Assembly: GCA_029262535.1 (NCBI GenBank)
Contig: JAJCZF010000073.1
Location: 3,870 to 67,869, forward strand
Direction: 5' to 3'
Origin: Deltaproteobacteria bacterium
GTDB lineage: Bacteria > Desulfobacterota > GWC2-55-46 > JAJCZF01
Length of the DNA stretch: 64,000 nt
The number at the start of each line of letters is the position of its first letter. The stretch's first letter is position 1. Made by a program: the position numbers and the translations under genes. Under the pieces are notes generated by a model. That model had not been told where the DNA came from. It saw only the letters and a program-made list of their open reading frames with translations, and ran no database searches. This document shows positions 35,804 through 48,017 of the stretch, in pieces.

Positions 35804-36049
35804 ATGTCTTCAAATAGAAAATTCTTAATTGTCCCAGTCATGCTGCCGCTCTTACTCGCCCTTGGAGCCTGTACACAGACCGTACCGCTTCATGAGCGCC
35901 TTCTGGGCGAACCCGGCATGTATGTAATAGGGGGTAAGTACAACGGTCTCGACATATGGAAGGAGCTTGGGCTCTCAAACTACGACTTAAACGGACTCCG
36001 GACCGGAACGGTCCGCTCTGAAGCGATTGAGATAGAGATCGTCGAATAA
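35804..36049 (+). CDS. Small putative lipoprotein
   Basis: GGAGG RBS, signal peptide with lipobox LGAC. Confidence 0.65.
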   Translation: MSSNRKFLIVPVMLPLLLALGACTQTVPLHERLLGEPGMYVIGGKYNGLDIWKELGLSNYDLNGLRTGTVRSEAIEIEIVE

Positions 36050-36066
36050 GGTTGGCTTAAGCCTCC

Positions 36067-36773
36067 CTACTCCTTAAGCTTTAGACGCAAGAGACCCTCG
36101 CGCACCTCTATCTCGTCTACGCCGTCGGCAAAGGACTTCCATAGGCCGCGCCTGCCGCCGTACTCTCTTATCAGATCGACATTCTTGATGCCGCCTGTCC
36201 AGCTATTGGGGAGCGGCACGCCCATTACACTCACACCTGCGAGCGCGACCACCGGGCGGCCATCTTCGTATAATAACTCAAGCCCGGCGCGAAGGCGCAC
36301 CGTCTCGCCCGGCATGATCGGAAAGTCTTCTGGAATCTTTGTTAGTATCTTCGCGCTCACTAGGTCATCTGACAGGTCTATTGCGACCTTTTTGGCAAGC
36401 TCCGAGTTGCGGCTTATGAGGCCGTTCAGTTCGCGCTCGGTAAAGATTATCTCACGCGGGCTGTCTTCGTTATATTTTTCAGGTTTGAGCCTGCCCTCCG
36501 AGTCGAACTCCTCAGCCCCATTAGAGTTCGCAGAGCTCTTAACCTGCGGCTCCTTAACGGTACTCTCTATATGCACGCCGATACGCGCAAGCTTCATCAC
36601 GAGAGCGCCCTCTTCCTTAAGACTGAGCGCGACCGACCTGAACTCGGTACGAAAGATATATAACTTCGCAACGACGAGGATTGCGACGACGGTAATCAGA
36701 ATCAGCGCACAGAGTATAAGCGCGACCTTCAGAGCGCCGGGCCGGCGCGCCCTTTTTCAGGTGGAGCCGTCAT
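36067..36773 (-). pseudogene. Conserved hypothetical membrane-anchored protein with an N-terminal frameshift
   Basis: Body (TERELNGLI, AIDLSDDL, GVSVMGVPLPNSW, WKSFADGV) looks like a real conserved protein; its frame extends upstream through a TM helix to an in-frame TGA, while ATG 36773 is in another frame. Confidence 0.6.
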
Positions 36774-36907
36774 TAGCGGAGAGCACGCAAAAGGCGGCTA
36801 TCTCGATAAGAACTTTTCATGGGTCTATTATACACTATTTTGTGGGAAAGTGGGAAATGGGAGAGGAGCTTTGGGTGACAGAAAAAAGGCCTCGGCGAAG
36901 GCCCCTC

Positions 36908-36938
36908 GTAGGTTGGGTAGAGCAAAGCAAAACCCAAC
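36908..36938 (+). repeat. GTAG-type REP element
   Basis: GTAGGTTGGGTAGAGC-aaagc-AAAACCCAAC; inverted homolog at 43719-43759. Confidence 0.75.
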
Positions 36939-37051
36939 ATTCTGCCTTTTGCTCCTATGCTCTACAGGTTTCAGTTGAGGATACGTTCTTTTTAGGGTTC
37001 CGGTTCAGGTTACAAACCTGAACCGGCTAAGAAACCGCACTATAATAGCTA

Positions 37052-37080
37052 TTGACAATACTAGAGTTCGCAACTAATAT
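37052..37080 (+). promoter_or_regulatory. Sigma70 promoter
   Basis: TTGACA-17 bp-TAATAT upstream of ATG 37147. Confidence 0.65.
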
Positions 37081-37146
37081 GAGTAAGGTTACGAATAGAG
37101 CTCTAAACTCACAGAGCAATACAACATATCTTATATGGAGAAAACG

Positions 37147-37633
37147 ATGAAGAGAGATCATTCATTAATACAGTTAATTAAAAAATACGGGCATTTTTTT
37201 TTCATTTACCCTACTCTTACTCGCACTTACCCCAGCCGTAGGATGGAGTGAAAAAGTATCTGTAGCGGAAGTACACGACGAGACTGCGCCAATACTCATA
37301 AACAGGGTCGGCACACTCTACAGGACGGATGACACTGGTGGATGCAAAGGTAGGCCATGGAAGGATATTCTTTCCGATAACTCACTACAGGTTGGCTTGG
37401 CATCGACACATATCGGACTCTCATACGCCGTTATCACTGTTCGAAGAAAAACAGAAACCGGTTACTCAGGACATGCGAAGCTCATCATTAATAAGGATGA
37501 CGAGTCCGGTATTCTCTTTAAGGATAGAAATTTCCTGCTAAAGGTCAAGAAAGTGGAAAACTGCAAAATAACGATTGAAATGAGAGAAGCCCCAAGTAAG
37601 GCTCTTACTCTCTCAAAAAGATCTCATAAATAG
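37147..37633 (+). pseudogene. Secreted hypothetical protein frameshifted in a T9 tract
   Basis: GGAG RBS and ATG at 37147; removing one T from 37194-37202 gives one ~161-aa ORF with signal peptide FSFTLLLLALTPAVG that joins ORF 37397-37633. Confidence 0.75.
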
Positions 37634-37649
37634 AGATCTTTTTACCCCC

Positions 37650-40600
37650 CTACTTCCTATGCCGATACAAGCTCTTATCGACCGTAGCCGACATCTTTTC
37701 GGGATTTAGCTCTTTGCCGATGAAGGCGCGGAGATCTTCGGCTACCTTTGTCGGCTCTTCGAGGGCGGCGTGGTAGGGGACCCTCAGTAGCTTTATCTTG
37801 CGGTTCTTCAAAAGGCCGTCCACCTGCCTTAGCTGTTGTTCGAATGTGGAGCGCAGACGGGCCTCGGTCAGGGCCGCGCCGTCCTTTTCCATGCGTTCGA
37901 GCATGGTGCGCTGGGAGGCCATTATCTCGTCCATCGGACGCTCCATAAATATTATACGGTATTCGAAACCGCCGCGAAGGTAAGGCAGGAGCGGCGCGAC
38001 GATCTTTACGGCCTTGCCCTGCGCCTCGGGCAGCCACATGGGGTCGGTCCTCAACTTCTTGGCGCGTTCGAATTCAAAGTAACCCTTGGGGTTGTCCTCG
38101 TCGGCCTTGCGCTCGTGGTCTGTCAGGCACTCCAGACCGCCTGCGTCCAACATCTGCATCATCATCGAAGTGCCGGAACGAGGAAGGCCGGTGACGATAG
38201 TTATAAAGTCGTCGCCTATTGGCGTAACCATACGCACGCCCTTATTCGGCGTCTCCGCTGCGCCCTCTGTAAGCTCATTATCTTCTTCAGGCTCCGCTGC
38301 CGCCTTCTCAACCTTTTGGGCCTTGAGCTTCTTTGCCGCTTCGCGGGCGCGGGCGCGGGCCTCTCGGACGCGCACCTTGGCCTCCTTACGCTGGTCGCGG
38401 CGCAGGTCGCGTATCTCCCTTACCATATCCTTATGGTCGGCGGCGAGTTCGGTATTCTTTAGACGGTATTTATATATATAGGCGAGCCGCTTATGGGCCT
38501 CCTCAAAGTTCGGGTTCTGCGAGATGGCGACCTTAAGGGCCTCGATAGCCTTATCTACCTTGCCGATACGGTGCAGGGCGATACCGAGATAATAATGGGC
38601 GCGAGGAAAGCTATAGAGTAAGCCCACGGCGGTCAGGGCGCTGTCGGCGGCCTTCATATTCTCACGTTTAGCGAGCTGGCTCATGGCAAGCCCCAGATAT
38701 GACTGCGCATTTTCCGGGTCTATCTTTATAGCCTTTTTAAATGATCTTTCCGCATTCTTCGGTTTTTTCAGACGAAGGAAGTTATGTCCGAGCTGGTTAT
38801 GAAGATAGGGCAGGCGCGGTCTGGCCTTTTCAGCGCGTTTCAGGTGTTCGAGCGCGCTCTCGTACCTGCGCTCCGCCATCATGACAAAACCCAGCAAGTA
38901 GTCGGAGCCGTAACGCGGCGGATTGGCCAGGGCGCGCAGGCGCCTCAGGTCGCGCTGCTCCTTGGGGGTGAATTTCGGGATAGAGTCGTCTTCCTGCCCT
39001 TCCGGTACAGGCTCTCCTTCCTCCCTTTCTACTACGGCCTCTGCGACATCTTCGGATTCTTTGATGAGTTCTTCTATTTCATCAGGCGCGTCGTCTACAT
39101 TCTCTACATCCGGCTGCGCGGGCGGAGCCGGTTCGACAGCCGGTATCGATTCGTCACCATCGATATTTACAGGCAAGGCGGCCTTTACGGCGTCGGCGAT
39201 ATCGGACTTCGCATCAGCCATCGTCTTCTCTAGTTCAATCTCTTCCTTGCTCTTGCCTTCGTCGGCCTTCTTTTTGGCTTCCGCGGCCTCTCTCTTTGCC
39301 TTTGCCGCCTCGCGTATGAGTTTAAGCTTCGGAAGAAAGTCCTTCTTCAGGGTCTTTCTCGACTCTATGGCGAGCCGTTTTTGCGTCTTTAATAGCTCTT
39401 CTATAGTCTTACGACACTCGGTATTAAGGCCGAGCGAATAGTAACAACTCGCAAGCCTGTTGGCGAAGCGAAGCTCCTCGGGCCAGTCGTTCCAGAGTTC
39501 CAAAAGTATCGGCAAAGCCTCGCCGTTACGGTTATCGTCTATATAGTCCTGCGCAAGGTTATAACGAAGCTCGCGCACCGTCTGCCTTACGGCCTCGTCC
39601 TTATCCTGTCCCGGATCTTCGATATAACCGAGGGCGACGAGCTGTTTTACGGCTTCAGCGGCCTCGACCGGGTCCATCTGGGCGTCGGGCGGGTGCGCGC
39701 CGTCGTCGCCTTCGACATCGTTCCAGCTCGGTATGGTCGTTATCTCCGGCTTTTCGGCAAAGGCCTGTACGAGCGGTTTGCCCTGCATATCCTCACCGAC
39801 CGGCAGGCCGAATAAGGTCAGGATTGTAGGCGTGATATCAAGCAGTGTCGAGCCGTATATAAGCTCGTCCTTCTTTATGCCCGGCCCCCTCATGGCTACG
39901 ATGCCGTATGGGCTGTGTTCCGCAGCAGGTCCGGCCGGTTCGAGAGGGATCTGCTTGGGGCGCATATTATCGGGATAGAAGCCGTGATCAGATACGATAA
40001 TAATCGTCGTATCGTCCCCTGCCAGATGCATAAGCGTACCGAGCATCATATCGTGGAAGCGGTAACCGGACTCGACGACCTCGCTATAGAGGTCAAAATC
40101 CTTCTGCGAGACATGGTCCTGTTTAGGAGGATGGTACTTCATAAAACCATGGCCGAAGTGATCTATGGCGTCGTAGTAAACACCCATAAAGTCCCACTCT
40201 TCGAGCTGTATACAGGCCGTTGCGCAGGCGTGTATGGAGGAGCAATCGGCTATGATCTTGGCGACCGACTCAAGCCGCTTGTCCTTATCCTGATCAATAT
40301 CAGCGGCCTTGGGCACGAAGGGCAGTATCTGTTCGGCCTCAAGCTCGCCGGGATGTACGCGCAACTTGGCTATATCTTCGATTAGGCGCTCGGGGTGTAT
40401 GGTGCCGGGCATTACGGGCCAGGGTTTGTCAATCGGCGCACCGGCGCGCTGGTATCTATTGGAGACCATAACGCCGTTGATCGGCTCGGCCGGATGCGAG
40501 GGCCACCAGCCTATGACGTTCGACTTCATGCCGTTTTGGTTAAGTATATTCCAGATAGCCTTGACGCTACGCGAAGCGGTCGTGATGGGACGGATGCCTC

Positions 40601-40847
40601 CGGTATGCGGATCGGGCTCGGTAAAGCCGTGTATGCCATGGCGATAGGGACGAACACCGGTGGCTATCGAAGTCCATAACATGGGAGAGAGCATGGGCTG
40701 GAGCGTTGCCAGGTTGCCCATGACCCCTTCGTTAATGAACCTTTCGAGCGCGGGCATCTTGCCCTGATCTATCAGCGGGTTTATCGCCTTCCAGTCGGCC
40801 GCGTCCCAGCCGATAACGAGCACCCTTTTAGCTATTCTCTTTGGCAT
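37650..40847 (-). CDS. Fusion protein: alkaline phosphatase-superfamily (NPP/phosphodiesterase-like) domain, TPRs and C-terminal PAPS-dependent sulfotransferase domain
   Basis: VIGWDAAD, LSPMLWTSIATG, DHFGH, SDHG, LVALGY; TPR helices (AHYYLGIAL, SYLGLAM); GLPRSGTS 5'-PSB loop, NPKGYFE, IFMER; no signal peptide. Confidence 0.88.
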   Translation of the reverse strand: MPKRIAKRVLVIGWDAADWKAINPLIDQGKMPALERFINEGVMGNLATLQPMLSPMLWTSIATGVRPYRHGIHGFTEPDPHTGGIRPITTASRSVKAIWNILNQNGMKSNVIGWWPSHPAEPINGVMVSNRYQRAGAPIDKPWPVMPGTIHPERLIEDIAKLRVHPGELEAEQILPFVPKAADIDQDKDKRLESVAKIIADCSSIHACATACIQLEEWDFMGVYYDAIDHFGHGFMKYHPPKQDHVSQKDFDLYSEVVESGYRFHDMMLGTLMHLAGDDTTIIIVSDHGFYPDNMRPKQIPLEPAGPAAEHSPYGIVAMRGPGIKKDELIYGSTLLDITPTILTLFGLPVGEDMQGKPLVQAFAEKPEITTIPSWNDVEGDDGAHPPDAQMDPVEAAEAVKQLVALGYIEDPGQDKDEAVRQTVRELRYNLAQDYIDDNRNGEALPILLELWNDWPEELRFANRLASCYYSLGLNTECRKTIEELLKTQKRLAIESRKTLKKDFLPKLKLIREAAKAKREAAEAKKKADEGKSKEEIELEKTMADAKSDIADAVKAALPVNIDGDESIPAVEPAPPAQPDVENVDDAPDEIEELIKESEDVAEAVVEREEGEPVPEGQEDDSIPKFTPKEQRDLRRLRALANPPRYGSDYLLGFVMMAERRYESALEHLKRAEKARPRLPYLHNQLGHNFLRLKKPKNAERSFKKAIKIDPENAQSYLGLAMSQLAKRENMKAADSALTAVGLLYSFPRAHYYLGIALHRIGKVDKAIEALKVAISQNPNFEEAHKRLAYIYKYRLKNTELAADHKDMVREIRDLRRDQRKEAKVRVREARARAREAAKKLKAQKVEKAAAEPEEDNELTEGAAETPNKGVRMVTPIGDDFITIVTGLPRSGTSMMMQMLDAGGLECLTDHERKADEDNPKGYFEFERAKKLRTDPMWLPEAQGKAVKIVAPLLPYLRGGFEYRIIFMERPMDEIMASQRTMLERMEKDGAALTEARLRSTFEQQLRQVDGLLKNRKIKLLRVPYHAALEEPTKVAEDLRAFIGKELNPEKMSATVDKSLYRHRK

Positions 40848-40868
40848 CTCTTTTCCTTAAAATAAAAA

Positions 40869-40898
40869 AATGGCGCATCACAAAAGTAATGCGCCATT
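40869..40898 (-). terminator. Terminator-like hairpin between the PEP-CTERM gene and the fusion-enzyme gene
   Basis: AATGGCGCAT/ATGCGCCATT stem followed on minus strand by TTTTTTATTTT, just before the AAGGA RBS of the enzyme. Confidence 0.7.
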
Positions 40899-40940
40899 AT
40901 AGCTTATTTGCTAAAGTACTTAAAGGGTTAATCAGAGGGT

Positions 40941-41702
40941 TCAGGCATTATTTGCCTGTGCCTTCTTACGTCTCCTCCTCCAGGCCATCAGTCCGCCCGC
41001 GCCCATCGCAAGGAGCGCCAAAGAAGCCGGTTCGGGTGTAGCCGCCGGGAGATGGCCCGCGCCTATGGGCGCGTCTGGCACAGTCTCATAGGCCCACTTG
41101 TATACTATCGCATATGCATTGATGGAACTCGACGAGGCAAAGACATCAACCCAACCGTAATGTGTATTGCCGCCGCGGTCGAACTTTACGCCTATAAAAC
41201 CGCGTACCTGAGGGAACTGACCGGCACCGGTGGAAGACCATCCTTCCTTCAGAAGCGTACCTGTCGTTGCAAACTGTGCCGCGCTGATAGACGAGCTGTA
41301 ACTAAAACGCTCTGCCACCGTCTTGCTGTATGTAGCAGTATATACTCCCGCTATAAGGTTGGTGCCTACCCCTGAAACATAGGCCTTGTGATTGCCGCCA
41401 CCATAGGCCTTGAAGTAGAAGTCCGACCCGAAAGAGCCGTCTATATCTATCGTCATGGTCACGGTGCCCGTACCGGAGAGTGAAACAGACGCTGTAGCGC
41501 CGCCCGTGATGATAGCGGCAGAGGCAGGAGAGACCGAAAGCGATACCGCACCGGCCGCCAGCGCAAGCGCCCCGGCGCTGTATGCGAGAAAAGAACTCTT
41601 TCTCTTACCCGAAAGGCTTAGCGCCGCCACGGACGAAGCCGAATAACCTTCAAGCCGCTTCTCTAGCGATACTTTAGCTCTATCTTTTTTGGAGATCATC
41701 AT
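40941..41702 (-). CDS. PEP-CTERM sorting-domain surface protein A
   Basis: C-terminal TPEPASLALLAMGAGGLMAWRRRRKK; long N-terminal leader ending ASA; GFIGVKF...THYGW motif. Confidence 0.9.
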   Translation of the reverse strand: MMISKKDRAKVSLEKRLEGYSASSVAALSLSGKRKSSFLAYSAGALALAAGAVSLSVSPASAAIITGGATASVSLSGTGTVTMTIDIDGSFGSDFYFKAYGGGNHKAYVSGVGTNLIAGVYTATYSKTVAERFSYSSSISAAQFATTGTLLKEGWSSTGAGQFPQVRGFIGVKFDRGGNTHYGWVDVFASSSSINAYAIVYKWAYETVPDAPIGAGHLPAATPEPASLALLAMGAGGLMAWRRRRKKAQANNA

Positions 41703-41790
41703 AGTTTTTAATTAACTCCTTTAGGTTCAATCATAAGCCCGCGTTCATCTCAAATAAAGACAGAGAGGTTTATTCTTCCTACATTAAACA

Positions 41791-41806
41791 AGCAATAAAG
41801 GGACCA
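41791..41806 (-). promoter_or_regulatory. Sigma54 -24/-12 promoter for PEP-CTERM gene A
   Basis: Minus strand TGGTCC-CTTTA-TTGCT (GG-N10-GC), about 90 bp upstream of the start. Confidence 0.72.
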
Positions 41807-41878
41807 ACAAGCTAAGGTGCTATTTTTATTGACTTATTTACATAAAATAAGGAGAAGAGAAAAAAATGATATCAATAC

Positions 41879-42070
41879 TGTAAAGCAAGTCGACATGAGG
41901 CGGAGGCGAGATAAATATTTTTCCAGTAAAAACAGGCACTTAATGGGGGGAGTTAAATACAGGGGGCGAAATCTGAACACCAGAGAAACTAGATAAAAAA
42001 TAGCTAACTAAAACAAATGGTTAGAAGAGAGGAATAGACAGCCTATGACAAAGTGTAAAAGAATCGGACA
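41879..42070. promoter_or_regulatory. Two TGTAAA-N7-GACA boxes, putative PrsR-type (PEP-CTERM box) enhancer sites
   Basis: TGTAAAGCAAGTCGACA (41879-41895) and TGTAAAAGAATCGGACA (42054-42070), upstream of the sigma54 site. Confidence 0.5.
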
Positions 42071-42287
42071 GTCACGCGCAACGCGACTGGCCAAATAGGA
42101 CGTACTACAACTCTTATCGGTCAGTTTTACGGCTTTAATATAAACTATCAGGTGTAAAGAGTAGCATACTTCCAATAGAAAAAAGAGGAGCCACACTAAT
42201 TCAAAGTTAAATAGCCGGTTCTTTCTTCTGCGCCACGCAGACAGTCGTCTGTCTCTTTCGCGGACTTAGTTAAGTAAGGCTCATTCT

Positions 42288-43097
42288 CTAGGAGTTACGC
42301 GCCGGAGCTTTTTTACGCCTTTTACGCCATGCAACGACACCGCCCGCGCCCATCGCCAGAAGGGCCAAAGAGGCCGGTTCGGGAGTGGCCGCAAGGTTTG
42401 GGATATGGGACCCGCCGAGGCCGTCGTCCCAGCCCCAGGCATATATCGTTATGGTAGAGGCGTCGGCGCTGACCGCGAGATCTATCCAGCCGTAATGGGT
42501 ACTGGCCGCGAGCTTTTCGAACTGTACGCCCAAAAATCCGCGCGTGCCGCGGAAGCTGCCACCGCTGGTGCTGGTCGTACTGTATGCGAGCAACCGCCCG
42601 GTAGCGGGCCGGGTGGAGGTCGAGTACGAGGAGACCGTCGTGGATGAAAAGTAGCTTGGAACGATGGTATTGCTTGCTGAGAAACGCCTTGCGTAAATAT
42701 TATTCGGGAGACCGGTGCGCGAGGCGGTCCCGGCAATAACGTTGGTAGAGTAGTTGATACCAGAGACCCTCGCTATATAATAGCTTGAGGTAGTCGAGAA
42801 GACCCTGAATCTGAAGTCGGCCGCAGCCCATGAATCAATATTAAGGTTGTAAGAAGAGCCTGAGGTGACTGTTATGGGCGAAGTAGGCGTATAGGTCTGT
42901 GGCGCGGCAACGGCACCGTTAGGAACGAGCGACGTAAGGGCCAGCGCGGCAGCGGCCCCGGCGGCGGAATAACCGAGACGCCTTGCGGATCTGCTCTTGC
43001 TATCCAGTGAAAGGGTCGAAGCAGCCGCCTCGGAGTACCCGGAAAGGCGTTTACTAAGAAGACCTGTTTCTTTTATCCGTGCAGACTTCTTAGCCAT
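42288..43097 (-). CDS. PEP-CTERM sorting-domain surface protein B (paralog of A)
   Basis: TPEPASLALLAMGAGGVVAWRKRRKK; RGFLGVQF...THYGW; very Ser/Thr-rich. Confidence 0.9.
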   Translation of the reverse strand: MAKKSARIKETGLLSKRLSGYSEAAASTLSLDSKSRSARRLGYSAAGAAAALALTSLVPNGAVAAPQTYTPTSPITVTSGSSYNLNIDSWAAADFRFRVFSTTSSYYIARVSGINYSTNVIAGTASRTGLPNNIYARRFSASNTIVPSYFSSTTVSSYSTSTRPATGRLLAYSTTSTSGGSFRGTRGFLGVQFEKLAASTHYGWIDLAVSADASTITIYAWGWDDGLGGSHIPNLAATPEPASLALLAMGAGGVVAWRKRRKKAPARNS

Positions 43098-43155
43098 AAG
43101 AACCTCGTATATAAGATTTGGATTAAATATAAGCGACTGTCGAATTTATTAAAAA

Positions 43156-43183
43156 ATTCTAACATAAGAGGCTCTCATGTCAA
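43156..43183 (-). promoter_or_regulatory. Sigma70 promoter for PEP-CTERM gene B
   Basis: TTGACA-16 bp-TAGAAT with extended -10 TG. Confidence 0.65.
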
Positions 43184-43259
43184 GTCAAAAAGCTTGAAAA
43201 AAGATGTTCTAGTCATTTCCGTCCCGTTATTAGAGCAAAACTCGCTGATTACGTCAAAA

Positions 43260-43291
43260 AAAGGCCCCTTTTCAATAGAAAAGGAGCCTTT
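43260..43291 (-). terminator. Intrinsic terminator after 43324-43599
   Basis: AAGGCTCCTTTTC/GAAAAGGGGCCTT stem followed by a T run on the minus strand. Confidence 0.65.
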
Positions 43292-43323
43292 ATTAATTTT
43301 TGATTATGGGCTTAAAGAGCTGC

Positions 43324-43599
43324 CTAAGACTCGTCAAATCTGTCGCAGATATCACAGCTCTCGCCCTTGCCGTGTTTTGACAGCTCCTGCTCGAATACTA
43401 CCAAACCGTCGCCCGCGCCGGGCCTTCTAATAATATCCTTGGTCATATCGAAACCGGCGCGTTTGAGCTTACGAAGCCACGCCCCGCCGTAGTCGAGCAA
43501 CTCTCCGCTCGTCACCTCGATCTGAAGCACGGTCTGAAGGTTCTCCTCATCGTAGAGACCATCTTTGTCGAGTTCGCCTGTTTTGTCTTTAGTAGCCAT
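43324..43599 (-). CDS. Small hypothetical protein
   Basis: 91-aa ORF with host-like codon use, followed by a terminator; C-terminal CDIC. Confidence 0.6.
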   Translation of the reverse strand: MATKDKTGELDKDGLYDEENLQTVLQIEVTSGELLDYGGAWLRKLKRAGFDMTKDIIRRPGAGDGLVVFEQELSKHGKGESCDICDRFDES

Positions 43600-43718
43600 A
43601 TATACAGAATACTACCGCCACAAAGAAAGAAATATGACTTAAATCAAATAATGGGGTTTATATAGATTTTTTTATTGCCGCAATTAAGGGAAAGAGTTCA
43701 TATTACTTAACGGTACTT

Positions 43719-43810
43719 GTTGGCTTTCGCGCGATAAAGCCGCGCTCTACCCAACCTACACTCTTTAAATGGTCTTTATCTAATTTTGTAGGCTTGGTAG
43801 CGCGTAACGC
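43719..43810. repeat. GTAG-type REP pair
   Basis: GCTCTACCCAACCTAC (reverse complement of the 36908 REP start) and a degenerate GTAGGCTTGGTAGCGC copy at 43788. Confidence 0.65.
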
Positions 43811-43992
43811 AGATTTTCAGGAGAGAAAACAATTCAAAAGGCGGAGAGGAGACTATCAGGTTTCTTGAAATTTTATCTGCGAAATTGGCCAACCGCACAC
43901 TGTGCGGTTGGCTTCGGGCACTGCGCGGCGCGGCGACGAAGAGGACGATTCCGCAAAACTACAACCGCGAAAATAAATGCACACCTGTGTGC

Positions 43993-44901
43993 CTAGTAGC
44001 CCCTCATGCGGCGGAGGTTTACGAGACGTTTAAATATACGGGATTTTTCCTTGGCGCTCTTTGCCGTGCGGAAGGCCTGCTCAAGGCGCGCAAGCTCGGG
44101 ATCGAAGGAGCCCTCCTGCCCTTCGGCAGGTTCGGGGGTCTTCTTTTTGGTCTCTATTATCTTTTTAAAGATACGGGATTTTTCTTTAGAGCTCTTTGCG
44201 TCGCGGAACTCCTTTTCAAGACGCGCAAGTTCAGGGTCGAAGGACTTAAAGACCTCCTTATTTACCTCCTCGTACTTGCCGCGAAGAGCGGCCTCAAGCA
44301 TCGATACCTCGGCAGGGCCGAGACAGAAGGCGCTCTTGGGGTCGGCAAGTATCTGAAACTTAAGACAGCCGACAGGCGTCCTCTCCGGGCCGCGTTCTAT
44401 TATGGAATAGGCGGCCTCAAGCATTAAAGGGTCCGGCCCGCGCACAGCCCTCTTTACGATAAAGCGCGTCTGCACGGCATTCATGGTGCCGATATACTGC
44501 CCGTCTCCCCAGCCGGCCCACGATGGCCTGTCCTTTGGGTCGAAACGGTGCTGCATCGAACGAAAGCTTGAGATGAAGAAACCAAGCTCGTCACCGAACT
44601 CGTAGGAGGTGTGATAGATAAAGCTATTGGCCTCCGCGTCAAAGTTATCGCCGATATTCATGACATTATCAGCGCTTATGACGTACTCGGATAGATCGAT
44701 GATGACGCGGCCCGTGCTGGAACGGCCCGCGAGAAAGAACTTGGTAAGCTCGGTCTCTCCCTCATGATTGAGTTTATAGGCGTAGTGCGTGCCAAGCTCC
44801 CCGCCCCCTTCGGTCGTGTCGATGACATCGGGATCGACGGCAAAGGCCGAGCCGGATAACGTAAAAAAAAGCAGCGCGCTTATAAATAGAAAATATTTCA
44901 T
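43993..44901 (-). CDS. Exported hypothetical protein with a C-terminal tandem 30-aa repeat
   Basis: Signal peptide MKYFLF...AFA; SFDPELARLE..FR.AKS.KEKSRIFK occurs twice. Confidence 0.75.
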   Translation of the reverse strand: MKYFLFISALLFFTLSGSAFAVDPDVIDTTEGGGELGTHYAYKLNHEGETELTKFFLAGRSSTGRVIIDLSEYVISADNVMNIGDNFDAEANSFIYHTSYEFGDELGFFISSFRSMQHRFDPKDRPSWAGWGDGQYIGTMNAVQTRFIVKRAVRGPDPLMLEAAYSIIERGPERTPVGCLKFQILADPKSAFCLGPAEVSMLEAALRGKYEEVNKEVFKSFDPELARLEKEFRDAKSSKEKSRIFKKIIETKKKTPEPAEGQEGSFDPELARLEQAFRTAKSAKEKSRIFKRLVNLRRMRGY

Positions 44902-44975
44902 AGGTATGGACAAAGCCCTTTGATAAAGTTTTTTCTATATTTTACCCCATTTCGAGAAAAAAACCAAGGCGATTG

Positions 44976-46139
44976 CTAACGCCCTTCGGTCCACTTCGAA
45001 AGCACCTTTTTTCTGTAGTTCATGAACGGGCGCTCCACAACCCGGTTGAGCATGGCAGAGACAGCCAGTACAATCAGGAAATATATAACGAACAAGACGA
45101 TAAACTCGGCATGGCTCGATACCGTTACGATACCCTTCATAGCCTTTACGACCGGCACGACAAGGATATAATGATATAGATACATAGTATAGCTGTACCC
45201 GGCCACCGTGGAGAAGAACTTTTTTGGATAGATAAAACGCCCGGCCCGCGCAAAGATGAGAAAAAGTATGAGCGAAGAAAAGCCCAGTCCGCCAACCGTA
45301 AATTGCCAGCATGTATTGAAGTACCCCCCACTGTGAGCGCCATATAGAAATATGCACCCTATGCCTGCCACGGCTCCGGCCAGGAGCAGGGCGAGCACGA
45401 GCGGGCGTGCCTTGGAAGCCCCATCTTCGCCGGCCCCGAAGAACTTAAAGTATTTTATGAATAAGTAAGCGCTAAGCACTCCGAACAATAACGAATCAAA
45501 ACGCGTATGAAAGGGCAGTCTTACGCCATACATCCAGTCTATGTCAGGTCCGTACACGAGGTGTCTTACGGCAAGCCCGGCGGCTATCAAGAACGCCACC
45601 CACAGGCCGGTCAAGCGCCACGAACGGCCCGCAAGGAAGACGAGCAAGAGAGGGGCGAGTATATAAAACTGCTCCTCCACGGCTAGCGACCAGTAAAGGT
45701 CCCGCTGAAGCACGCTCACGAAATAATTTTGCAGGTAAACGAGGTGCAGGAAAAAGTCCTTGAAGAAGACCGAAACGGAATCGGTATCGGCTATGTTGCC
45801 GTCCGAAAGGCCGGTAAAAAAGAGCAAGCCGAGCACGACGAGCGAGAAATAGTAGGCCGGAAAGATCCTAAGAAGCCGTTTGAAGTAGAACTTCTTCAGG
45901 CTGAACTCACCGGAGCGCGCCTCCTCCAATATCTGCCCACCTATAAGAAAGCCGCTAAGCACGAAAAAGAGCCCCACGCCGTTCCAGCCCCAGGCAATGA
46001 GTTTTGTCAAGAACCCCGGAGGTGTGACGAAGCGCTCGCCGAAGTGCGCGAACATCACAATGGTGATAGCGACGGCCCTGACAAGGTCGAGCTCGGGATA
46101 ATGCCTCTTGAAAAGGACCCTGTTATTTGTTTCGACCAT
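44976..46139 (-). CDS. Acyltransferase-3 (OafA/OatA-N-like) membrane O-acyltransferase
   Basis: LDLVRAVAI..V...H, GV.LFFVLSGFLI, FYFKRLLRIFPAYY, WSLAVEEQFY, SYTMYLYH. Confidence 0.93.
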   Translation of the reverse strand: MVETNNRVLFKRHYPELDLVRAVAITIVMFAHFGERFVTPPGFLTKLIAWGWNGVGLFFVLSGFLIGGQILEEARSGEFSLKKFYFKRLLRIFPAYYFSLVVLGLLFFTGLSDGNIADTDSVSVFFKDFFLHLVYLQNYFVSVLQRDLYWSLAVEEQFYILAPLLLVFLAGRSWRLTGLWVAFLIAAGLAVRHLVYGPDIDWMYGVRLPFHTRFDSLLFGVLSAYLFIKYFKFFGAGEDGASKARPLVLALLLAGAVAGIGCIFLYGAHSGGYFNTCWQFTVGGLGFSSLILFLIFARAGRFIYPKKFFSTVAGYSYTMYLYHYILVVPVVKAMKGIVTVSSHAEFIVLFVIYFLIVLAVSAMLNRVVERPFMNYRKKVLSKWTEGR

Positions 46140-46327
46140 AGTCTACGCCTTCTTTGAAATATAAAATATTACCTAACTAGCCCGAATAATGAAAGAATTT
46201 TCTCCGCCCCGTGGGACGGGCCGTTACCGCCCAACGAGTAATTACGGTTGTAATGAGCCTTTGAGTTGCTCTATAATGGCCGGAGCCGCCTTGGCTCAAG
46301 GCTAAATGAATTAGATCCGGGAGTTTC

Positions 46328-47548
46328 ATGAATCGTCTAGCGCGTGACATAACGATAGTTTTCGGCATCACCCTGCTCCTACTCCTCTCGTTCGAGATAA
46401 TTTTAAGATTCTACTCGCCCGAAAGGCGCGTGGACGAGGCCACCATCGAGGCCGGTTTCGAACACAACGACAACTACATAGTAGACCTCAAGCCGAATGT
46501 CGAAAAGGTATTTACGCGCACCGACTTAAACGGCGGCGCGCGTATAACCTGGCGCACCAATAGCGACGGCTTTCGCGGCGAAGAGCTCAGGGCGGGAGCC
46601 CGCCCAAGGGTCATGATCTACGGTGACTCGAACCTCCAGGCCCGCTTCACGCCCAGCCAGGAGAACTTCCCAAGGAGGCTCGAAGAGGAGCTACGCCCCC
46701 GGTTTGCCGGGATAGAGGTTATTAATGCCGGTGTCGTAGGCTTCGGCCCGGACCAAATGCTCTTAAAGTTCAAGCAAGAAGCAGACATGTACAGCCCCGA
46801 CCTCGTTATCTTTCAGTTTTTTGCCGATAACGACTTTGGAGACCCGGTACGAAACAGGCTCTTTGAACTCAACCCGGAGGGCCGCCTCGTAAGGACCCGC
46901 CACGCCGTGCGCCCTGACGAGCGGCTTGTAGAAAAGCCCCGGCGCGGCCTCAAGGACTCGCTTCGCTTGGTGAGCTGGGCCGCGGGCATAAAGTCGAGGA
47001 TGAAGCTCCGGGAGGCCGTCTCCGGCGGGGCTGGCGGCTTTGCCGGGGCCATAGAGAAAGAGAATGCCATATATTCGCTAAATCTGCCAAGAGAGTACTC
47101 GAACTTCGACGATCACTACGACTTCGACGTAACTTTCTTTCCGACCAGGAAGATGACACGTACGAAGCTTGAGCTTGCACGCGAAATACTTAAAGAAGCG
47201 CGTGACTTCGCCCGCTCCAGAGAGATAAACTTCATGGTCGTCGTTCAGCCTTCGAGCCGCGACCTATCGGAAAACTCCTACCCCAACCACACACACTTTC
47301 GCCAGTACGACTCCTACAGGCCCGAAAATCTCTCGGACTTCGCATGGAATATCCTTGAAGAGGAGGCTATCCCCGGCCTGAACCTATTCCCCGTCTTTAA
47401 GAGGAATAACCCCTCGACACTTTTTCATCTCGGAATAAACGACCACTGGAATTCCAGGGGGCAAGCGCTCGGAGCGCGCGCTGCAGGGGCCTTTATAAAA
47501 GAGAACGGCCTATTGGAAAGACCGGCCAAACCTGGAATAAATCCTTGA
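46328..47548 (+). CDS. Membrane-anchored SGNH/GDSL hydrolase-family protein (AlgX/AlgJ-like)
   Basis: N-terminal TM, NSDGFRG, YGDS, NAGVVGFG, NDFGD, DHWN. Confidence 0.85.
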   Translation: MNRLARDITIVFGITLLLLLSFEIILRFYSPERRVDEATIEAGFEHNDNYIVDLKPNVEKVFTRTDLNGGARITWRTNSDGFRGEELRAGARPRVMIYGDSNLQARFTPSQENFPRRLEEELRPRFAGIEVINAGVVGFGPDQMLLKFKQEADMYSPDLVIFQFFADNDFGDPVRNRLFELNPEGRLVRTRHAVRPDERLVEKPRRGLKDSLRLVSWAAGIKSRMKLREAVSGGAGGFAGAIEKENAIYSLNLPREYSNFDDHYDFDVTFFPTRKMTRTKLELAREILKEARDFARSREINFMVVVQPSSRDLSENSYPNHTHFRQYDSYRPENLSDFAWNILEEEAIPGLNLFPVFKRNNPSTLFHLGINDHWNSRGQALGARAAGAFIKENGLLERPAKPGINP

Positions 47549-47567
47549 AATATGGTATATTATATTA

Positions 47568-47942
47568 ATGAAGTTTCTTTCAACGATAGTGCTCGGGCTT
47601 TCCCTCCTTCTGCTGACTGGCGCACCGTCCGAGGGCGCGCGCCGCTCAGGCGTCAAACTCGACAAGGAGACGAAGAAGTGCCTGCGCTGCCACAAGGGGG
47701 ACTCTTACCACCTTCGTAGCGAAGAGCACCTCCTCGGCATGAAGTACAAAACCGCGGCAAAGAAGAATCCGACACTTCGCCCTTATAAGGAACTCGACGA
47801 GCGCCTTACCTTCAAACGCGGACGCGTGGGATGCACAACCTGCCACACCGCCTTTATGGAAGAGAGGCACAAGGGCGTCGGGCCGATGCTTATTATGAAC
47901 AATCTCGGCAGCACCCTGTGCCTCGCCTGTCACTTAAAGTAG
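47568..47942 (+). CDS. Periplasmic triheme c-type cytochrome
   Basis: Signal peptide; CLRCH, CTTCH, CLACH. Confidence 0.9.
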   Translation: MKFLSTIVLGLSLLLLTGAPSEGARRSGVKLDKETKKCLRCHKGDSYHLRSEEHLLGMKYKTAAKKNPTLRPYKELDERLTFKRGRVGCTTCHTAFMEERHKGVGPMLIMNNLGSTLCLACHLK

Positions 47943-47988
47943 ACCTGCCGCGACCGCCTGCTTTCCTAATATAAAGCCAGGAAAAAGC

Positions 47989-48017
47989 TTGACTATCAGC
48001 ACCTATTCATATAGTAT
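47989..48017 (+). promoter_or_regulatory. Sigma70 promoter for ffh operon
   Basis: TTGACT-17 bp-TAGTAT. Confidence 0.55.

Follow-up and report, generated by a model that had tools for sequence, protein, structure and literature searches.

Signal peptides are usually treated as degenerate. YSIRK-G/S and KxYKxGKxW are signal-peptide motifs of Gram-positive surface proteins. For type V secretion proteins, the parts of PMC2805444 drawn on here describe an extended signal peptide region (ESPR), an N-terminal extension of ~20-25 residues that stands before a normal signal peptide of the general secretory (Sec) pathway and gives the layout N1-H1-N2-H2-C. The passages of PMC1569441 drawn on for the PEP-CTERM/exosortase system report ordinary signal peptides only, name YSIRK, and contain no occurrence of the word "sulfotransferase". 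Tyrosine sulfation of a secreted bacterial peptide is described for RaxX and RaxST in the consulted portions of PMC4646787 and PMC4892823. Within a library of open-access papers, we found no co-mention of "extended signal peptide" and "PEP-CTERM", and "sulfotransferase" occurred with "PEP-CTERM" in a single paper, once each. Here we describe a conserved signal-peptide box, recurrently duplicated within the leader, in a large family of surface proteins, as carried by two PEP-CTERM proteins (A and B) that are encoded beside a three-domain fusion enzyme in a 64,000-nucleotide (nt) stretch from a Deltaproteobacteria bacterium (assembly GCA_029262535.1, contig JAJCZF010000073.1, positions 3,870 to 67,869). 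This whole stretch is hereafter the window, and its own numbering is used unless another locus is named.

Two PEP-CTERM proteins with a doubled box in their leaders

Gene A (40941..41702, minus strand; 253 amino acids (aa)) and gene B (42288..43097, minus strand; 269 aa) were taken from the list of open reading frames (ORFs), and both products match the PEP-CTERM models TIGR02595 (24.8 bits for A and 24.9 for B, cut-off 16) and PF07589 (24.6 and 25.8 bits, cut-off 20.7). The sorting tails lie at 40965..41042 in A and 42312..42389 in B, both on the minus strand, and the two proteins are 39% identical overall. A reading of the window made from the DNA alone (hereafter the sequence-only reading) had noticed leaders of 62 and 64 residues with a doubled Tyr motif on these proteins, and this was confirmed. 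Each leader has two boxes of the L-x-x-Y-S type, followed by an Ala/Gly-rich hydrophobic stretch and then an A-x-A site; the second copies spell L-x-Y rather than L-x-x-Y.

The leader of A (residues 1-62; 41517..41702, minus strand) contains Tyr20 and Tyr41 and ends in ASA at -3/-1. Within it, the first box spans residues 13-30 around Tyr20 (41613..41666, minus strand), and the second box, with Tyr41, forms residues 33-62 together with the h- and c-regions (41517..41606, minus strand). The leader of B (residues 1-64; 42906..43097, minus strand) ends in AVA at -3/-1, as placed by the aligned Ala columns and by a codon 1 that is the sole start in 70 codons. Its first box (residues 13-31 with Tyr21; 43005..43061, minus strand) is polar and predicted to be helical, based on the alignment of extended leaders and a structure model, and the same alignment resolves the rest (42906..42998, minus strand) into a basic n2 region, the second box with Tyr43, an Ala/Gly-rich h-region and a c-region.

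In the AlphaFold model of B (mean predicted local distance difference test (pLDDT) score 76.6), a helix at residues 10-30, a loop and a helix at 40-54 precede a confidently modelled beta-sandwich at 67-224 and a transmembrane helix at 243-262. Many 10-residue blocks of the ~170-residue mature beta-sandwich have pLDDT values of 83-97, and some interior blocks have values of 54-71. A Foldseek search with the model against the PDB gave no match at E ≤0.001, leaving the mature fold without a named relative there, and the ESM Atlas matches were exclusively to hypothetical or PEP-CTERM clusters, most often from Planctomycetota. In eight much longer relatives (P0014, P0018, P0025, P0045-47, P0057 and P0109; 1284-3498 aa) the mature domain was matched in four or five separate stretches, and by these matches the beta-sandwich appears to be also a repeat module in giant proteins.

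The leaders have the features of a Sec signal for signal peptidase I, with a K/R-rich n-region, an uncharged hydrophobic h-region and small residues at -3/-1. We interpret them as cleavable Sec-type signal peptides with an N-terminal extension formed by internal duplication of the box, an interpretation that we give about an even chance of being right.

Paralogs and translation starts in the host genome

The host genome (2.2 Mb in 87 contigs, 88% complete, with one exosortase) encodes six paralogs of the family: A, B, one each on contigs C23, C34 and C68, and one split across the ends of C51 and C86. The doubled leader is common to all six. The four outside the window stand singly amid housekeeping genes. 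The sole unrelated PEP-CTERM protein of the genome (contig C52) has an ordinary short signal, and an eighth match to the PEP-CTERM models (C84) was rejected as a false positive falling inside a 601-aa ORF.

The sequence-only reading had held that the leader is better conserved than much of the mature region, and the paralogs bear this out. The identity of A and B is 41% in the leader and 56% in its first box, compared with 27% in the mature region and 88% in the PEP-CTERM tail; averaged over every pair of paralogs, the four values are 31%, 41%, 20% and 75% in the same order. The motif search that it had proposed for the whole genome recovered only family members: four of the 7273 ORFs of at least 60 aa reached 12 bits with a matrix of the box, all of them paralogs. 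A word search with B residues 1-66 returned B alone among 2563 candidates at E ≤10, the query being too short to inform.

The long leaders might be an annotation artefact with the true starts downstream, which would fit an in-frame GTG at codon 25 of A and GTG30 and ATG36 in the C23 paralog. We consider this almost certainly wrong. Besides codon 1, neither B nor the C68 paralog has any in-frame ATG, GTG or TTG in the first 70 codons, and in the C34 paralog the next possible start, its only other one, falls within the hydrophobic core. A Shine-Dalgarno sequence of the GGAG/GAGG type precedes codon 1 in all five full-length paralogs, and the leader is conserved at the protein level across phyla. 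The leaders are thus translated parts of these proteins.

Conservation and duplication of the box across relatives

A profile search for the family returned 16167 cluster representatives at E ≤0.001, including 8452 at E ≤1e-10. We aligned 141 proteins shorter than 400 aa out of 151 collected, the 10 long multi-domain proteins being excluded. The column of the main box holds Tyr in 112 of the 141, Phe in 7 and neither in 22 (four or five of these 22 are N-terminally cut), so the motif is conserved in homologs. At the predicted cleavage site, Ala occupies position -1 in 132 and position -3 in 122. The column of the first-box Tyr holds Tyr in 35 of the 141, or 30 of 136 when the five proteins of this genome are left out.

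The consensus of the box and the statistics of its two copies were derived from a subset of 114 proteins chosen by eye, which over-represents box-bearing rows. In this subset the box reads [EGD][KR][KR]-L-[AL]-[AG]-Y-[SAT]-[ALV]-A-A-G-A-[AV]-L, and the two basic positions ahead of it (n=106) are K 46 and R 17, then R 41 and K 41. Homologs with a single box can be aligned to either copy, and their leaders have a median length of 39 residues compared with 55 in the extended type. In the 33 extended leaders, the second Tyr follows the first at a distance of 18-26 residues (median 23). Copy 1 retains Leu at -3 in 32 of these leaders, Tyr in all 33, Ala at +4 in 24 and Leu at +8 in 23, a spacing at which all four would lie on the same side of a helix. 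Over the 12 residues that follow the Tyr, copy 1 has a mean hydropathy of -0.21 and on average 2.6 charged residues, versus a mean hydropathy of 1.40 and zero charged residues for copy 2.

In the relative P0126 the box occurs as a near-perfect tandem repeat, with K-R-L-A-A-Y twice, 19 residues apart; from its sequence it looks like a recent instance of the duplication behind the extended leaders. In a subfamily from soil metagenomes (L157, L158, L160, L161 and L163), up to five tandem family genes stand ahead of the enzyme gene, and the N-terminal box is R-W-K-W-M-A-G-A-T-A-A, with Trp/Met in the usual place of the Tyr.

We picture the origin of the extended leader as follows. The normal signal peptide of the family has an Ala/Gly-rich core that opens with a conserved box of approximately [KR][KR]-L-x-x-Y-[SAT]-x-A-A-G-A-x-L, and it ends in A-x-A. 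The box would have been duplicated internally in A, in B and in about a quarter of the nearest relatives, and the upstream copy would have retained the helix face of L(-3), Y(0), A(+4) and L(+8) yet gained charged residues. Being charged, this copy cannot enter the membrane and should remain in the cytoplasm as an amphipathic helix, whereas the downstream copy would still open the true h-region, with N1-H1-N2-H2-C as the likely resulting layout. The most likely role of the extension would be one in cis, affecting either targeting or the moment of export. From these features we infer cleavage at A-x-A, a cytoplasmic placement of copy 1 and any effect on export.

Copy 1 could instead be a functionless, neutral remnant of a tandem duplication, the neighbouring enzyme acting elsewhere, for example on a polysaccharide bound by the surface protein. 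Duplications of the box do arise, as P0126 illustrates, and the Acyl_transf_3 and SGNH/AlgX-like neighbours (see below) are typical of polysaccharide modification. However, the near-invariance of L(-3) and Tyr and the narrow range of spacings given above are kept in proteins that are only ~30% identical overall, and, the sorting tail aside, no part of the paralogs is better conserved than copy 1. We therefore regard the remnant explanation as improbable.

The predicted helix-loop-helix of the leader would also suit an uncleaved N-terminal hairpin, associated with the membrane and anchoring the protein together with the C-terminal helix. Copy 1, however, is too polar to span a membrane, the A-x-A is conserved at the end of the h-region, and the parts of PMC1569441 drawn on here describe PEP-CTERM proteins with cleaved signal peptides, all of which makes such a hairpin very improbable. 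A signal of the twin-arginine translocation (Tat) type is more remote still. The h-regions are weakly hydrophobic and rich in Ala/Gly, B spells S-A-R-R-L-G-Y-S and TatC is encoded in the genome, but both basic positions accept K about as readily as R, and A and the C23 and C68 paralogs have no RR. The Tat model TIGR01409 scored 7.6 bits (cut-off 16.7) in B only, and was aligned on the h-region rather than on the RR.

The neighbouring fusion enzyme

Directly downstream of A lies the gene of a 1065-aa cytoplasmic enzyme without a signal peptide (37650..40847, minus strand), in which domain matches, an alignment of homologs and structure models indicate a fusion of an alkaline phosphatase (AlkP)-type phosphodiesterase, tetratricopeptide repeats (TPR) and a sulfotransferase. 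The first domain matches the type I phosphodiesterase/AlkP-type family PF01663 (E 2.7e-28, residues 9-294), the TPR occupy residues about 650-850, and the sulfotransferase residues about 880-1065. In sequence searches of the PDB, the phosphodiesterase domain gave only a weak match to phosphonoacetate hydrolase (E 0.0058), and no meaningful match was obtained for the sulfotransferase domain (best E 0.86).

The C-terminal domain has the attributes of a sulfotransferase dependent on 3'-phosphoadenosine-5'-phosphosulfate (PAPS), and is predicted to be one from its family score (35.2 bits to Pfam Sulfotransfer_3, cut-off 27), its P-R-S-G-T-S loop and its modelled fold (pLDDT 87.9, fold matches at Z 11-13.6). 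P29, R30, G32, T33, S34, R110 and S118 are invariant among 54 sequences. The nearest solved folds are tyrosylprotein sulfotransferases (TPSTs), which hold ranks 1-7 (Z 12.9-13.6, root-mean-square deviation 2.7-3.7 over 162-177 residues) and, in Foldseek, ranks 1-4; other sulfotransferases, 4gox at Z 12.7 and Teg12 at Z 12.3, lie within the tie margin of 1 Z unit.

The enzyme is widespread and highly conserved. Among 7999 scored candidates, 4703 proteins were homologous at E ≤1e-10, and an alignment of 14 homologs gave 49-62% identity to the window protein. Species genomes yielded at least 594 relatives, and, judging by source names and locus titles, there are homologs in cyanobacteria, Verrucomicrobiota, Planctomycetota, Acidobacteriota, Gammaproteobacteria and Bacteroidota.

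Linkage and co-occurrence of the family and the enzyme

The sequence-only reading had tied the leaders to the neighbouring TPR enzyme, and at the level of gene linkage and co-occurrence the tie between the two genes is supported. We collected 80 loci seeded with the enzyme and counted a family gene when it matched at E ≤1e-8 over at least 90 profile positions, on the same strand and adjoining the enzyme gene. Such a gene was present in 30 of the 61 loci with at least 900 nt on both flanks. It stood upstream of the enzyme in 25 of the 72 loci with an upstream flank of this length and downstream in 6 of the 67 with a downstream one, and five of the 80 loci had two tandem copies. Some loci scored as negative, such as L078 and L086, do carry box-bearing ORFs that are weaker or shorter. 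The six downstream cases all come from Bacteroidota, and in each of them the PEP-CTERM tail is replaced by a type A tail of the type IX secretion system (T9SS) scoring above the TIGR04183 cut-off. These proteins still start with the box, indicating that the link to the enzyme does not run via the PEP-CTERM tail. In the opposite direction, metagenome contigs seeded with the family gave 23 loci, and the enzyme gene was adjacent in 14 of the 17 that could be assessed; the other three had at least 250 nt downstream and no enzyme, and six contigs end too early to judge.

Co-occurrence was profiled in phylum samples of 201 genomes each, every sample including one seed genome picked for having the enzyme. 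Five Planctomycetota genomes encode a near-full-length enzyme, and the family was found in four of these versus 1 of the 196 others. In Verrucomicrobiota, six of the seven genomes with the enzyme (E ≤1e-100) have the family, versus 12 of 194. Both were present in the Acidobacteriota seed genome and neither elsewhere in that sample, from which genome G597 was excluded for having partial matches only. The adjacency seen in both search directions strongly supports a functional tie between the PEP-CTERM family and the TPR enzyme.

In 40 relatives of the host genome, 37 of which are at least 90% complete, searches recovered neither the mature-domain family nor the complete fusion. This absence suggests that the cassette was probably acquired horizontally and that the family then expanded to six paralogs.

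Two further arrangements were seen among the enzyme loci. At a Spartobacteria locus (L087:9027-9881, minus strand) the family gene, whose product has an N-terminus of the extended type, and the enzyme gene point away from each other instead of in the same direction. At Bacteroidota loci, an ORF of 60-113 aa without a signal peptide lies just upstream of the enzyme gene (L039:9820-10035, L066:9814-9996, L068:9745-9996, L072:9715-10002, L081:9709-9960, L091:9689-9874, L092:828-1016, L095:9585-9812 and L083:9584-9925). Its product ends in a helix of the G-S-L-G-L-L-A-L-G-Y...W-R type and a basic tail, which resembles PEP-CTERM without the PEP motif, and gave no family match except for one weak match in the tail.

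Does the enzyme read the leader?

In its explanation of the leaders, the sequence-only reading had offered a recognition leader like those of ribosomally synthesized and post-translationally modified peptides (RiPPs) or an export-delay signal, read by the neighbouring TPR enzyme. The conserved adjacency of the two genes does match the pattern of a modifying enzyme encoded alongside a RiPP precursor. In other respects the likeness to RiPPs is not supported. The part after the leader is a folded beta-sandwich of ~170 residues rather than a core peptide, a classical A-x-A site for signal peptidase closes the leader, and the box Tyr is wholly missing in a third of the family genes adjacent to the enzyme. 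This last figure comes from a manual classification of 33 assessable genes, after three partial or unclear and two non-adjacent genes had been dropped; the extended leader, the single Tyr box and the absence of the Tyr account for 11 genes each.

A direct reading of the leader by the enzyme, of whatever kind, is a tentative proposal that we find on balance unlikely. Its more specific form, in which the Tyr box, and especially the cytoplasm-exposed copy 1, would serve the co-inherited enzyme as a docking site or as a substrate, we likewise hold as unlikely, if a little more doubtful, although it is the foremost rival to the extended Sec signal. In this scenario the helix face would be bound by the TPR and the pre-protein modified, before or during export and maybe at the box Tyr, by either the TPST-like sulfotransferase or the phosphodiesterase domain. 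Much of the genetic evidence agrees with such a reader, namely the same-strand adjacency, the co-occurrence in Planctomycetota and Verrucomicrobiota, and the N-terminal box kept by the Bacteroidota partners despite their T9SS tail. An enzyme that has no signal peptide and stays in the cytoplasm has access to an exported protein only until its export, or through segments that face the cytoplasm. The modelled sulfotransferase is nearest to TPSTs, and an APS (adenosine-5'-phosphosulfate) kinase encoded in the host genome makes a supply of PAPS plausible.

The distribution of the box itself points in the same direction. In the phylum samples, 10 family-bearing genomes have the enzyme, and four of these (G181, G188, G232 and G293) encode a box-bearing member, versus none of the 13 that lack it (one-sided Fisher p ~0.02, calculated by hand, with kin that are not independent), so the box is not equally common where the enzyme is lacking. 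None of the 19 family genes in these 13 genomes reached the box threshold, and they have ordinary short, Leu-rich signals instead. However, the enzyme-less family members are more distant, and the box and the enzyme may merely mark one subfamily. Only one of the six Verrucomicrobiota genomes with both genes has a box-bearing member, most enzyme-linked family genes of that phylum being without the box, and the absence of the Tyr from a third of the enzyme-adjacent genes counts against this reader as well. Four of the six paralogs in the host genome are dispersed, small-molecule sulfotransferases such as 4gox score on a par with the TPSTs, a terminator-like hairpin stands between A and the enzyme gene, and the modification of a signal peptide that is then cleaved off has no obvious use.

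Some of the same observations, with others, weigh against an extended Sec signal peptide that works purely in cis. The near-invariant Tyr and the conserved helix face exceed what Sec needs, and this, together with the confinement of box-bearing members to enzyme-bearing genomes, argues for a specific reader. The leader helices of the B model have low pLDDT values (54-72), the predicted cleavage site is drawn from A-x-A conservation alone, and the weakly hydrophobic h-regions and the RR before the second box of B are Tat-like. With these reservations, the extended Sec signal peptide is the interpretation that we retain.

A broader proposal is that the Tyr box is a cytoplasm-side handle, by which the fusion enzyme recognizes, and perhaps sulfates, its client before export, for both PEP-CTERM and T9SS cargo and in at least six phyla. 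We consider this quite unlikely. If true, it would amount to a signal-peptide-directed system of pre-export modification, in which duplication of the box in some lineages exposes a soluble copy.

Promoter-like elements and neighbouring genes

A strong, terminator-like hairpin of 13 bp with a T-run lies between the stop of A and the start of the enzyme gene (40869..40898, minus strand), and its sequence suggests that A is highly expressed and that only limited transcription continues into the enzyme gene. Gene B is preceded by a sigma-70-like promoter (TTGACA-16-TAGAAT, 11/12 consensus positions; 43156..43183, minus strand). A sigma-54-like TGG-N9-TGC element is located 104 nt upstream of A (41792..41806, minus strand), and the same element occurs upstream of the C23 (91 nt) and C51 (68 nt) paralogs, against a genome background of 0.19 per kb. 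An Rfam search over 36000-48000 gave nothing near any gathering score.

On the other side of B, a secreted-looking protein of 306 aa (43993..44913, minus strand) has two lysine-rich repeats of ~35 residues (F-D-P-E-L-A-R-L-E...K-S-R-I-F-K) and no Pfam or NCBIfam match. Beyond it lie genes that Pfam assigns to an Acyl_transf_3 membrane acyltransferase (44976..46139, minus strand) and an SGNH/AlgX-like protein (46328..47548, plus strand), a pair beside the cassette that is typical of polysaccharide O-acetylation.

Significance and comparison with known systems

A near-invariant and repeatedly duplicated Tyr box implies that additional information resides in this signal peptide. The surface-protein family with the box is large and unannotated and is tied, by searches from either side, to a highly conserved, uncharacterized three-domain cytoplasmic enzyme, and the enzyme-cargo gene pair is well supported and apparently undescribed. 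It offers a testable pair for the pre-export handling of exosortase and T9SS cargo, and bears on whether bacteria beyond Xanthomonas sulfate exported proteins.

The RaxX/RaxST pair, as presented in the portions of its reports cited above, resembles the locus in that the gene of a cytoplasmic PAPS-type sulfotransferase adjoins that of the exported protein on which it acts, and the nearest solved folds of the C-terminal domain of the window enzyme are TPSTs. RaxX, however, is a short RiPP-type peptide, whereas the partner here is a folded domain of ~170 residues with a Sec signal, and the window enzyme is a three-domain fusion whose sulfation activity is putative.

Like YSIRK-G/S and KxYKxGKxW, the box is a conserved Tyr motif in the signal peptide of sorted surface proteins and is presumed to be read by some machinery. 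The motif and its position differ, the hosts are diderm, and no Pfam or NCBIfam model of these Gram-positive motifs was matched at E ≤10.

With the PEP-CTERM/exosortase system (Haft et al. 2006, PMC1569441) the locus shares the tails of A and B and the single exosortase of the genome. A TPR protein as partner also has a precedent there in PrsT. PrsT, however, is a lipoprotein, and the TPR region of the window enzyme scores 62 bits to the PrsT model, versus a cut-off of 312. A further difference is that the coupled family is also found with T9SS tails.

The closest likeness in layout, and in layout only, is to the ESPR (PF13018) as the cited parts of its description give it, since the A and B leaders likewise combine an extension with a complete signal peptide on large surface proteins. 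Searches with five leaders at E ≤10 matched 0 Pfam families, hence not PF13018, and no NCBIfam model except for the sub-threshold Tat score in B. ESPR cargo has an autotransporter barrel, whereas the A/B family is sorted by PEP-CTERM/exosortase or by the T9SS, and the A/B extension differs from the ESPR in being a recognizable duplicate of the signal peptide's own n/h-junction box.

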